Shown here: in pieces, positions 27,401 through 33,400 of the stretch
Numbering within the stretch: the first letter of the stretch is position 1
How the letters are laid out: each line of letters opens with the position of its first letter
Source: Escherichia coli O157:H7
Lineage (GTDB): Bacteria; Pseudomonadota; Gammaproteobacteria; Enterobacterales; Enterobacteriaceae
Direction: 5' to 3' (one strand)
Length of the DNA stretch: 64,000 bases
Assembly (NCBI RefSeq): GCF_013167455.1
Contig: NZ_CP038328.1
Program-made: the position numbers

Positions 27401-30400
27401 GAGTCGGTACGAATTCCGCGCACCGCGCGCATCGTCTGGTCGACCCGTGAAATGGGGCGGGTTTACCACGCCGCAGGGGTAGAACGCCAGGTACGTAATC
27501 TGCTGTGGAAAGGGAAATCGCAGGCAGAATTTTATCGCGGCATGGAGTGGTTGTACGGCTGGAAAGAAGATAACTGTTTGCAACCACGCTAAGCACTTCT
27601 TCACCCAATCAGGCGCACGGGCGGTCCCCTCGCCCCTTCGGGAGAGGGTTAGGGTGAGGGTAAAAATCTTGCCCGAATTAATCAGTAAGTCAGTTTGTCT
27701 GCAAACACAGGAGGCGCTAACATAGCGCCTCATTTTTTTGCGGGTGATGATATGCGTGTGTTACTGGCTCCGATGGAGGGAGTGCTTGACTCTCTGGTGC
27801 GTGAATTGCTGACCGAAGTTAACGACTACGATCTGTGCATCACCGAGTTCGTCCGCGTGGTGGATCAACTGCTGCCGGTGAAAGTCTTTCATCGCATTTG
27901 CCCTGAGCTACAAAACGCCAGCCGGACACCATCCGGTACGCTGGTGCGCGTGCAGTTGTTGGGTCAGTTCCCACAATGGCTGGCAGAGAACGCCGCCCGT
28001 GCGGTGGAATTAGGTTCCTGGGGCGTGGATCTCAATTGCGGCTGCCCGTCGAAAACGGTTAACGGTAGCGGTGGTGGGGCGACGTTACTCAAAGATCCTG
28101 AACTCATCTACCAGGGGGCAAAAGCGATGCGTGAAGCTGTACCGGCGCATTTGCCCGTCAGCGTGAAAGTGCGTCTGGGCTGGGACAGCGGTGAGAAGAA
28201 ATTTGAAATCGCCGATGCGGTTCAACAGGCTGGTGCTACGGAGCTGGTGGTGCATGGACGGACAAAAGAGCAGGGTTACCGCGCGGAGCATATTGACTGG
28301 CAGGCGATTGGCGAGATTCGCCAGCGGCTGAATATTCCGGTGATTGCCAACGGCGAAATCTGGGACTGGCAGAGCGCGCAAGAATGCATGGCGATCAGCG
28401 GCTGCGACTCAGTGATGATTGGTCGCGGGGCGCTCAATATTCCCAACCTGAGCCGGGTAGTAAAATATAACGAACCGCGAATGCCGTGGCCGGAGGTGGT
28501 TGCTTTGCTGCAAAAATATACCCGTCTGGAAAAGCAGGGCGATACCGGGTTATATCACGTAGCGCGGATTAAACAGTGGTTGAGTTATTTGCGTAAAGAA
28601 TACGATGAAGCAACAGAATTATTTCAGCATGTTCGTGTGTTGAATAATTCCCCTGATATTGCAAGGGCTATTCAGGCAATTGATATCGGTAAGCTGCGAT
28701 AATAGTGGAATCGCAGTTTATCAGAAACAATGAATCGCTTATTCAGCTTCATCATCTTGTTGCGCTCCTTTCATGAGCTAAGCCACATATTGCCACTGGC
28801 GCAAGGAGCGCGCAGGGGGAGGACAATCGCCTCCTCCCCCTGCACCCCCGGGCTCTGGCGAACAAAATCGCCGCTGCGCGGTACCTTCAGCTTATCCCCT
28901 TCGGCTACCGGGTCGGGCGCGAGGAAACGTCCTTGTAAGACGCGCCCTCAGCCCACATCCATGTGGGCTGCCCCGGCCTTCGGGGAACGCTTCAGCGATT
29001 TTGACGCCACCAACACCGGAGCTGTTTGCAAATCAAGTACACAAAATATCTAGTTCCTGACCTGACAACTTATATGTCATATCTGATTTTTAAAATATCA
29101 TCTTAAATACGCCAGTCACCACCAGTAGCCCAATCAGGAAAATAATCAATACAGCCCAGAGTATAATTTTCATTGGCGTTCCTTTATTTGTGAGTGCTGA
29201 ATAAGTATAGGAAAAAACGAAGCCCTTTGCCGTTATCCATAAACGATTAAGATAAATCGGAAGATATCATTCACTTAGTGTATATTTTTCTGGATATGTC
29301 GTTTTATTGCTACTGATGTATTGCCACGCGAAACTAAAAAATATATCGCAACACACGGTAATCTCCGCGCACCTTTTCTTACCTGATTATTCCCCCATGA
29401 ATCGTGATTCCTTTTATCCAGCCATCGCCTGTTTTCCGCTGTTACTGATGCTGGCCGGGTGTGCGCCTATGCATGAAACCCGCCAGGCGTTAAGCCAGCA
29501 AACGCCCGCTGCACAAGTTGACACCGCATTACCCACGGCGCTGAAAAATGGTTGGCCAGACAGCCAATGGTGGCTGGAGTATCACGATAATCAACTCACT
29601 TCCTTAATTAACAATGCACTACAGAACGCACCGGATATGCAGGTGGCTGAACAGCGCATTCAGTTAGCTGAAGCCCAGGCGAAGGCAGTTGCTACTCAGG
29701 ATGGTCCGCAGATCGACTTTTCTGCGGATATGGAGCGGCAAAAAATGTCGGCAGAAGGGCTAATGGGGCCGTTTGCTCTGAACGATCCGGCCGCAGGTAC
29801 GACCGGTCCGTGGTACACCAACGGAACTTTTGGCTTAACGGCGGGCTGGCATCTCGATATCTGGGGAAAGAATCGGGCGGAGGTTACTGCCCGCCTGGGT
29901 ACGGTTAAAGCACGGGCGGCGGAACGCGAGCAAACCCGCCAATTGCTGGCTGGCAGCGTAGCCCGCCTGTACTGGGAGTGGCAAACCCAGGCGGCGTTAA
30001 ACACGGTCTTGCAGCAAATCGAAAAAGAGCAGAACACCATTATCGCGACCGATCGCCAGCTATATCAGAACGGGATTACTTCTTCAGTTGAAGGTGTGGA
30101 AACCGATATTAATGCCAGCAAAACCCGGCAGCAGCTCAACGATGTCGCGGGGAAAATGAAAATTATTGAGGCACGGTTAATTGCACTCACAAATCACCAG
30201 ACTAAGTCATTGACGCTTAAACCGGTGGCGTTGCCGAAAGTGGCAAGCCAGCTTCCTGATGAACTGGGGTACTCCTTACTGGCCCGGCGGGCAGATTTGC
30301 AGGCGGCGCACTGGTACGTTGAGTCATCGCTAAGCACCATTGATGCGGCAAAAGCGGCATTTTATCCTGACATCAACCTGATGGCCTTCCTGCAACAGGA

Positions 30401-33400
30401 TGCGTTGCACTTAAGCGATCTGTTCCGTCATTCCGCGCAGCAAATGGGCGTTACGGCAGGCCTGACGCTACCCATTTTCGATAGTGGTCGTCTTAACGCC
30501 AATCTCGATATCGCAAAAGCCGAAAGCAACTTGTCTATCGCCAGCTACAACAAAGCGGTGGTTGAAGCGGTGAATGACGTGGCGCGGGCAGCCAGTCAGG
30601 TTCAGACACTGGCGGAGAAAAACCAGCATCAGGCGCAAATTGAGCGCGATGCCTTGCGTGTGGTAGGTCTTGCGCAGGCCCGCTTTAACGCGGGCATCAT
30701 TGCTGGTTCCCGCGTCAGCGAAGCCAGAATCCCCGCGCTGCGTGAGCGGGCCAATGGCCTGTTATTGCAAGGGCAGTGGCTGGATGCCTCCATTCAACTC
30801 ACTGGTGCGTTGGGCGGGGGTTACAAACGCTGATGATATGTGACTTCTATACTTAACGTTTATTCAGCGTTAAGTGGAGAACTCGATGGCACAGGTAGCG
30901 ATTATTACCGCCTCCGATTCGGGGATCGGCAAAGAGTGCGCGTTATTACTGGCGCAGCAAGGGTTTGATATTGGCATTACCTGGCACTCAGATGAAGAAG
31001 GGGCAAAAGATACCGCGCGTGAGGTAGTTAGCCACGGCGTACGTGCGGAGATCGTGCAACTGGATCTCGGCAATCTGCCAGAAGGTGCGCAGGCGCTGGA
31101 GAAACTTATTCAACGGCTGGGGCGTATTGATGTGCTGGTGAATAATGCGGGCGCAATGACCAAAGTGCCGTTTCTTGATATGGCTTTCGATGAGTGGCGC
31201 AAGATTTTTACCGTTGATGTCGATGGTGCATTTTTATGCTCGCAAATTGCTGCCCGCCAGATGGTGAAACAAGGACAGGGTGGTCGCATCATCAACATTA
31301 CGTCGGTACATGAACATACGCCGCTGCCGGATGCCAGCGCCTACACAGCCGCTAAACATGCGCTCGGCGGGTTAACCAAAGCAATGGCGCTGGAGTTGGT
31401 CAGGCATAAGATTTTGGTGAACGCAGTCGCACCTGGGGCGATCGCTACGCCAATGAACGGCATGGATGATAGCGACGTGAAGCCCGACGCGGAGCCTTCG
31501 ATTCCTCTGCGGCGTTTTGGCGCAACGCATGAGATTGCCAGCCTGGTGGCGTGGCTTTGTTCGGAGGGCGCAAATTACACCACCGGGCAGTCGTTGATAG
31601 TGGATGGCGGCTTTATGTTGGCGAATCCGCAGTTCAACCCAGAATAGCGCAGTGAGGTGTGTGGATATTTCAATGGGTAAAATTTTGGTAGGCATGATAA
31701 GACGCACAAGCGCCGCATCAGGCATGGTGAACCGGATGTCGGATGCGGCGCGCACGCCTTATCCAGGGCAATGGTTTTACGCCTGATTATCCGGCTTTTT
31801 CTTCCCGCGTCGTTTCAGCCACCAGCGCACGCCTACCACCAGAACCACGACCAGAATCAACCAGACCCAGTGCTTCAAATGCTGGTCGAGATTGTGCAAC
31901 CACGGCGCAATCACCTGACCACCAGCGTAACCGATAGTGGTAAAAATCAACGCCCAGGCAAATGCGCCGAGAATATTAAGCGGCAGAAAGATTTTCGGCG
32001 GCAGCTGGCTGGCACCAATCAGCGTCGGGCCAATCACCCGAAAGCCATACATAAAGCGCGTACCAATGACAAACAGATACGGATGGCGTTGGATCAGTTT
32101 CTGCGCCCGCTCAATTTTATCCTGATGTTTAGAGAAACGGCGTAACAGCTTACCGCCAAACCGCCGCCCGCACAGATAGAGCACCTGGTCGCCAATCATG
32201 CCGCCAAGCGCTACAGAAAGTACCACCAGCGGGAACTTTAATAGCCCCTGATGTGCCGCAAGGCCTCCCAGCAAAGTCACGGTTTCACCTTCCGCCAGGC
32301 TACCGATAACCAGCGCGGCATAACCATATTGTGAGATGAGTGTATTGAGATCCATAGGCCAGTCTGTCTCCCTTTGGTTGCCTGTAAGCATACACCCTGT
32401 GAATCATTCACGCTGAAAAAGGACGTACATCAGACGGTGCAAATTACATGGGCGAACAAAAAATAATCACAAGCTGACTTATACTTGAACTGTCAGGTTC
32501 ATGAACTCACAACAAGGGGGCGGTATGAGCCATGTCTGGGGACTGTTTTCCCATCCCGATCGTGAAATGCAGGTGATTAATCGCGAAAACGAAACGATTT
32601 CTCACCATTACACCCACCACGTTTTGCTGATGGCGGCGATTCCGGTGATTTGCGCCTTCATTGGCACTACACAGATTGGCTGGAATTTTGGCGATGGCAC
32701 TATCCTGAAGTTATCCTGGTTTACCGGACTGGCGCTGGCTGTCCTGTTTTATGGCGTTATGCTCGCTGGGGTCGCGGTGATGGGGCGGGTCATCTGGTGG
32801 ATGGCGCGTAATTATCCGCAGCGTCCGTCACTTGCGCACTGCATGGTCTTCGCGGGCTACGTTGCAACTCCGCTGTTTTTAAGTGGTCTGGTGGCGCTTT
32901 ATCCGCTGGTCTGGTTGTGTGCGCTGGTCGGCACGGTGGCACTGTTTTACACCGGTTACCTACTTTACCTTGGTATTCCGAGCTTCCTGAATATCAACAA
33001 AGAGGAAGGCCTTAGCTTCTCCAGTTCGACGCTGGCGATTGGCGTGCTGGTACTGGAAGTGCTGCTCGCCCTTACCGTTATACTATGGGGCTACGGTTAT
33101 CGTTTGTTCTAGAAAGTTCTTTGACGTTGCATTGCTGGCGTAAATGTCAGCAATGCAGCATTTCCTCACGATTCTCCTTTGACGATCGCACTTTTTGCTC
33201 GTTATGATGGCGTCGCTAGCCTCAGTAAATCCTTACTCCGGCGGTGCGCAACCCGTGCGCGTGAACCACTATCTGAATGCTCATCATGCCGAAATTTCGA
33301 GTTTCTTTATTTAGCCTGGCCCTGATGCTGGCTGTGCCTTTGGCACCGCAGGCCGTTGCGAAAACGGCAGCCGCTACCACCGCTTCACAACCGGAAATTG

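Follow-up and report, generated by a model that had tools for sequence, protein, structure and literature searches.

Does the mdtQ (yohG) gene of Escherichia coli O157:H7 encode a complete outer membrane factor (OMF), and is an intact copy a peculiarity of the strain or the usual state of a species from which K-12 has departed? The question is raised by a stretch of 64,000 nucleotides of an O157:H7 chromosome (RefSeq assembly GCF_013167455.1, contig NZ_CP038328.1), hereafter the window, in which the gene occupies positions 29397-30833. MdtQ is one of four OMFs of E. coli, and its function has not been elucidated, according to a 2025 review of TolC (PMC11762307). An intact mdtQ in O157:H7 and a pseudogene in K-12 are already known and recorded in RefSeq, NCBIfam and the same review. 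An original prediction, made from the window sequence, described an uninterrupted frame leading from a lipoprotein signal peptide to the end of a TolC/OprM-family OMF, stated that K-12 carries a disrupted pseudogene, and proposed that this strain may retain a functional efflux channel. In the present work the reading frame, the protein family, the K-12 lesion, the distribution of the intact allele and the surrounding expression signals were analyzed, and with high confidence the element is an ordinary, intact wild-type mdtQ encoding a 478-residue precursor of a lipoprotein OMF of the NodT/OprM subfamily.

Reading frame and start codon

Both the list of open reading frames (ORFs) and the raw sequence place mdtQ on the plus strand, from an ATG at 29397 to a TGA ending at 30833, with 478 codons, a stop and zero internal stops, as had been described. 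Over the 1801 bases around the gene, the DNA shows 100% identity to the chromosomes of O157:H7 strains, in which the coding sequence is annotated as intact mdtQ (WP_001078131.1). The exact protein, named MdtQ, occurs in at least 1000 contigs of the public collections, and its 90%-identity cluster comprises 11156 members and reaches Escherichia albertii. The ATG at 29397 is backed by RefSeq and by the NCBIfam MdtQ model, which is matched over positions 1-478 of 478, whereas the 508-residue product that results from an in-frame extension to a TTG at 29307, present in the mechanical ORF list and called by some pipelines, is backed by neither the family model nor RefSeq.

This longer call, together with the caveat in the original prediction that a subtle frameshift could have been missed by eye, is what might suggest a disguised pseudogene, that is, a gene with a hidden frameshift, a wrong start or a loss of essential residues. 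Such a reading is already refuted and its probability is negligible. The family model is matched from end to end, the identical sequence is carried in RefSeq as an intact coding sequence, and length and frame are equal, with no stops, to those of the intact alleles of 12 divergent genomes, which were picked down the identity ranking from 98.9% to 97.2% and all of which (12/12) annotate an intact mdtQ of 1437 bp. A hidden frameshift and a wrong start are thereby excluded.

Family assignment

The NCBIfam equivalog model for MdtQ, NF008524, scores 1023.8 bits against a cut-off of 650, with residues 1-478 aligned to the whole model, and the model of the NodT lipoprotein OMF subfamily, TIGR01845, scores 274.7 bits against a cut-off of 210 (residues 16-475 on model positions 4-460 of 460). 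The Pfam family OEP (PF02321) matches two stretches of the protein: the better one, the first repeat, covers residues 69-266 (plus strand, 29601-30194; E = 3.5e-30, 105.6 bits versus a cut-off of 22), and the second lies in the C-terminal half. Among solved OMF structures, sequence matches over the mature protein are led by VceC (1yc9, 2.2e-39), followed by OprM, SilC, CmeC, CusC, OprN, MtrE and OprJ. The product is thus assigned by its sequence to the TolC/OprM-type OMFs and, among these, to the NodT/OprM lipoprotein subfamily, in agreement with the family that had been proposed. MdtQ has no solved structure according to the 2025 review, in which the AlphaFold model AF-Q8X659 is used (PMC11762307).

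Neighboring families were considered and set aside. The MdtP model (NF007390) reaches 355.1 bits over residues 17-477, under its cut-off of 597, which rules out that the gene is mdtP and leaves MdtP as a paralogue. Membership in the TolC subfamily of type I secretion OMFs was rejected, although the architecture is alike, because the TolC-type model TIGR01844 yields only 53.1 bits against a cut-off of 225.15; the CusC-type and AdeK models also score under their cut-offs.

Lipoprotein signal peptide

The lipoprotein signal peptide that had been noted at the start of the protein was confirmed from the translation, in which it occupies codons 1-22 (29397-29462, plus strand). The N-terminus, MNRDSFYPAIACFPLLLMLAGC followed by APMHE, contains a single basic residue, a hydrophobic core and the lipobox L-A-G-C; the signal peptide ends in LLLMLAGC, the lipobox residues L19-A20-G21-C22 lie at 29451-29462, and Ala stands at position +2. 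The mature protein is predicted to start at an acylated Cys22. In lipoprotein sorting, Ala at +2 directs the protein to the outer membrane, and Lol-dependent sorting of MdtQ to that membrane is predicted because its residue +2 is Ala and not Asp. In an alignment of 14 alleles, comprising those of the 12 divergent genomes, that of the window and that of K-12 with its frame restored, Gly21 and Cys22 are invariant, and the sole change in the lipobox is A20T, found in two strains and still compatible with a lipobox. MdtQ has also been listed among the N-acylated OMFs in a bioRxiv paper.

The lesion in K-12

The disruption in K-12 named in the original prediction was borne out by the annotation of MG1655, where mdtQ (b2139, formerly split into yohG and yohH) is a pseudogene of 1436 bp, 1 base shorter than mdtQ of the window; a RefSeq entry for a K-12-related strain likewise describes the gene as "frameshifted". 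In a global alignment, the window and MG1655 genes differ by 17 substitutions and one deletion (98.7-98.8% identity). The deletion, which is the K-12 lesion, removes 1 base from a run of adenines in codons K50-N51, five in the window (29544-29548, plus strand; column 148 of the allele alignment) and four in MG1655 b2139. Around this site the window reads GCG CTG AAA AAT GGT, encoding A48 L49 K50 N51 G52, while the K-12 frame passes from TALK into MVGQTANGGWSITIINSLP and a stop. The shift after K50 thus adds 19 aberrant residues and ends a 69-residue product, which, to judge from its predicted sequence, is devoid of the channel domain.

The remaining 428 codons of the K-12 gene are open in the shifted frame, and once the frame is restored the K-12 protein differs from that of the window at three residues only (I262S, H267N and T273K); because of these two facts, the lesion appears to be recent. 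A separate observation concerns the location of amino-acid polymorphism, which is clustered at 30180-30227 (codons 262-276). All three differences between the O157:H7 and K-12 proteins lie in these 15 codons, 7 of the 17 substitutions fall within 47 nt, and of the 26 residues that vary among the 14 alleles, 6 are found here, at codons 262, 267, 271, 273, 275 and 276. Either a variable patch on the surface or in a linker, or a short tract of recombination, could account for the cluster.

Distribution of the intact allele and selection

Of 5426 complete E. coli genomes, 5423 carry the mdtQ locus, and in 5407 a single piece spans 80% or more of the query. The state of the lesion site was read with 63-nt probes centered on the adenine run, one with five and one with four adenines, for which only exact matches were counted. 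The five-adenine probe matches 4583 of the 5407 genomes. The four-adenine probe matches 355, and all 60 genomes among the matches listed are laboratory derivatives of K-12, including MG1655, DH5alpha, DH1, C600, J53, RR1, NCM3722 and AG100. About 470 genomes match neither probe, with substitutions in the examples listed. Intact mdtQ is therefore the norm of the species, of whose core genome the gene has been considered a part (PMC11762307), and the K-12 lineage is the outlier, its pseudogene being, on the evidence of the probes and the alignment, a lineage-specific 1-bp deletion in the five-adenine run.

The 14 alleles contain no stops, their polymorphic sites are distributed over codon positions 1, 2 and 3 as 18, 13 and 70, and the mean pairwise dN/dS is 0.083. 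Purifying selection on mdtQ is clear; with a dN/dS of about 0.08 and an intact frame in every sampled divergent genome, the gene is maintained by selection. The suggestion of a functional channel possibly retained in this strain thus holds insofar as the gene is intact and under selection, and fails insofar as it singles out the strain, intactness being the rule; a channel function is what the sequence predicts. Intactness and purifying selection imply that the gene is maintained, and neither the export cargo nor the pump can be deduced from them.

Gene neighborhood and expression signals

The order dusC-yohP-mdtQ-yohF-yohD is common to MG1655 and the O157:H7 strain PV15-279. Pump or adaptor genes (MFP, RND, MFS, ABC) were not found near mdtQ, whose neighbors are yohP, dusC, yohF (SDR), yohD (DedA) and yohC; since no adaptor or pump gene is adjacent, mdtQ is an orphan OMF gene, in line with its description as "encoded independently" (PMC11762307). 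In this it departs from most OMFs of the NodT type, whose genes accompany those of an adaptor and a pump. Upstream and divergent from it lies yohP (29090-29173, minus strand, mapped from the RefSeq annotation of the O157:H7 locus), which encodes a small membrane protein of 27 residues. The same arrangement has been described in PMC12719787, where YohP is reported to lower the membrane potential and to induce "metabolic silencing".

No purine run resembling a Shine-Dalgarno sequence was found before the ATG of mdtQ (TTATTCCCCCATG), and a sigma-70 consensus scan identified no promoter in the 223-nt spacer between yohP and mdtQ. The promoter and terminator scan of 28650-31800 returned two weak promoter-like matches, fewer than in shuffled sequences and neither of them in this spacer, and says nothing about mdtQ expression; the mdtQ promoter has no experimental confirmation according to the review (PMC11762307). 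In the allele alignment, the 85 nt that directly precede the ATG (29312-29396, plus strand) are invariant: 0 of 85 sites are polymorphic, as against 47 of 224 fourfold-degenerate sites within mdtQ (Fisher p = 7e-8). The predicted RNA fold of the leader (29300-29430) is not more stable than that of shuffled sequences (z = +0.73), so RNA structure does not explain the invariance. A scan of 28600-31000 against Rfam at E <= 0.1 gave zero matches, and a repeat search in 28650-29450 found a single weak inverted pair. The invariant stretch, presumably a promoter or leader, is probably a conserved, uncharacterized control region. An in-frame ATG, at 29316, stands where the invariant run begins.

Downstream, 52 nt 3' of mdtQ and on the same strand, lies yohF (30886-31647, from the RefSeq annotation of the identical O157:H7 locus and the ORF list), which encodes an oxidoreductase of the SDR family. 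A consensus scan detected no terminator-like site between the two genes, which are possibly co-transcribed. The 52-nt spacer contains an 11-bp hairpin (30850-30876, plus strand); the fold of the 70 nt at 30826-30895 has a predicted energy of -20.1 kcal/mol (z = -3.4). The hairpin is near-invariant in the 14 strains, is not followed by a U tract, and its 3' arm overlaps the ribosome-binding site of yohF. These features suggest a structure compatible with co-transcription of mdtQ and yohF, and translational or stability control of yohF is possible. In the sampled strain FCI5, mdtQ is intact, while the annotation of yohF is that of a pseudogene interrupted by a stop (1687-1801 of the locus in this strain).

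A repeat named TRIP1c, which joins other TRIP1 copies in rare chromosomal rearrangements, has been placed 43 bp downstream of dusC (yohI) and 363 bp upstream of mdtQ (PMC10888264). These distances, rather than an alignment, put it at about 28746-29033 of the window. A 107-residue ORF in the mechanical list (28730-29053) falls in the repeat and is probably spurious.

Wider genomic context

Positions 1-32910 of the window are 99.96% identical to PV15-279, and identity is 99.3% up to about 45433. A cluster for the catabolism of 3-hydroxybenzoate and gentisate lies between yohJ and dusC at about 16600-27600, as in the O157:H7 reference; its genes, mapped from PV15-279, encode a LysR regulator, MhbT, GtdA, a FAH-family hydrolase, MaiA and a 3-hydroxybenzoate 6-monooxygenase. 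The cluster is absent from K-12 MG1655, where yohJ directly follows dusC. At the other end of the window, a prophage that encodes a tyrosine integrase occupies about 42600 to 64000, beside mlrA (yehV), the known Stx-phage site of O157:H7; mlrA is annotated at 687 bp in the O157:H7 reference strain. PV15-279 carries stx2 on its prophage, and from about 45433 onwards its sequence and the window diverge, so the prophage at this site is a different one in the strain of the window.

Discussion

How the product would work can be sketched from its family, namely VceC, OprM, CusC and TolC. The precursor would be exported by Sec, acylated at Cys22 and freed of its signal peptide by the Lgt, LspA and Lnt pathway, and then carried by Lol to the outer membrane. 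There it would form a homotrimer with a beta-barrel pore in the membrane and a long alpha-helical tunnel in the periplasm, which would dock, by way of an adaptor in the periplasm, to a transporter of the inner membrane, open upon contact with the adaptor and act as the outlet of a tripartite exporter. Lipidation, localization, trimeric channel architecture and efflux function are all attributed to MdtQ by analogy with these relatives.

Several observations weigh against the reading of the locus as an ordinary gene for such a duct. No cognate adaptor or pump gene adjoins mdtQ in the annotated neighborhood. Recognizable Shine-Dalgarno and consensus promoter sequences are missing upstream, so that expression may be low or conditional. 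Sulavik et al. (2001) is said to be the source of the drug hypersusceptibility of the yohG/mdtQ null; if that null was made in K-12, whose gene already loses its frame after codon 50, the phenotype could hardly be ascribed to mdtQ and may come from polarity on the neighbors yohF or yohP. The reported drug phenotypes of mdtQ null mutants are mild and second-hand (PMC11762307, PMC9241588).

Two other explanations start from the same intact gene. According to one, mdtQ is effectively cryptic, with too little transcription or translation to matter, so that its loss in K-12 was free of cost. This would fit the bare upstream sequence just mentioned, the tolerance of K-12 to the frameshift, the independent truncations of mdtQ in some isolates of Salmonella Typhi and Paratyphi A (PMC9241588) and the dominance of TolC among the OMFs of E. 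coli (PMC5615136). A cryptic gene would, however, not be expected to show a dN/dS of about 0.08 across phylogroups, an intact frame in 12 of 12 divergent genomes and core-genome status, and the invariant 85 nt upstream of it point to a conserved control region and not to decay. The low dN/dS and the constrained upstream region weaken this explanation, and we consider it unlikely, although it may hold under laboratory conditions. According to the other, MdtQ is a working duct for something other than drugs, such as a metabolite or another endogenous compound, possibly in connection with YohF, and its "multidrug resistance" name is a misnomer. The mildness of the drug phenotypes would then be expected, and the short distance from mdtQ to yohF on the same strand, the lack of a terminator-like site and the conserved hairpin at the yohF ribosome-binding site agree with a link between the two genes. 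Yet the nearest characterized relatives (VceC, OprM and the MdtP family) are drug-efflux ducts, and the adjacency to yohF was examined within E. coli only; this proposal, too, is rather doubtful. The interpretation of mdtQ as an ordinary wild-type gene for a lipoprotein OMF is therefore preferred.

A more specific role can also be imagined, although we put it forward only tentatively and think it improbable. In wild strains such as O157:H7, MdtQ could be the exit duct for an unrecognized partner or substrate, perhaps co-expressed with YohF and controlled via the invariant 85 nt, a capacity that K-12 lacks. Such a role, which would be non-redundant, may have been invisible so far because nearly all genetic work on E. 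coli has used the frameshifted K-12 background; if it exists, wild strains possess an export or efflux capacity that is absent from K-12. In any case, K-12 is a natural mdtQ null, so what it has taught about redundancy among OMFs or dependence on TolC need not hold in pathogenic or wild strains. Work on the function of MdtQ requires an O157:H7-like background or a K-12 strain in which the single adenine has been restored.

Among known systems, the annotated MdtQ of O157:H7 (WP_001078131.1) is the same gene as that of the window, with no difference. The closest paralogue family is that of MdtP (YjcP), likewise an N-acylated OMF of E. coli, which is encoded in its own operon, mdtNOP, with the adaptor MdtN and the pump MdtO, whereas mdtQ stands alone (PMC11762307). 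VceC of Vibrio cholerae (1yc9), OprM of Pseudomonas aeruginosa (1wp1) and CusC of E. coli (3pik) are homologous to the whole mature protein (E = 2e-39, 6e-23 and 5e-21, respectively) and belong to the same class of NodT-type lipoprotein OMFs, but they are distant from MdtQ in sequence and each is encoded alongside its cognate pump and adaptor. TolC of E. coli shares about 12% identity with MdtQ (PMC11762307) and, in contrast to MdtQ with its lipobox, is not lipidated.

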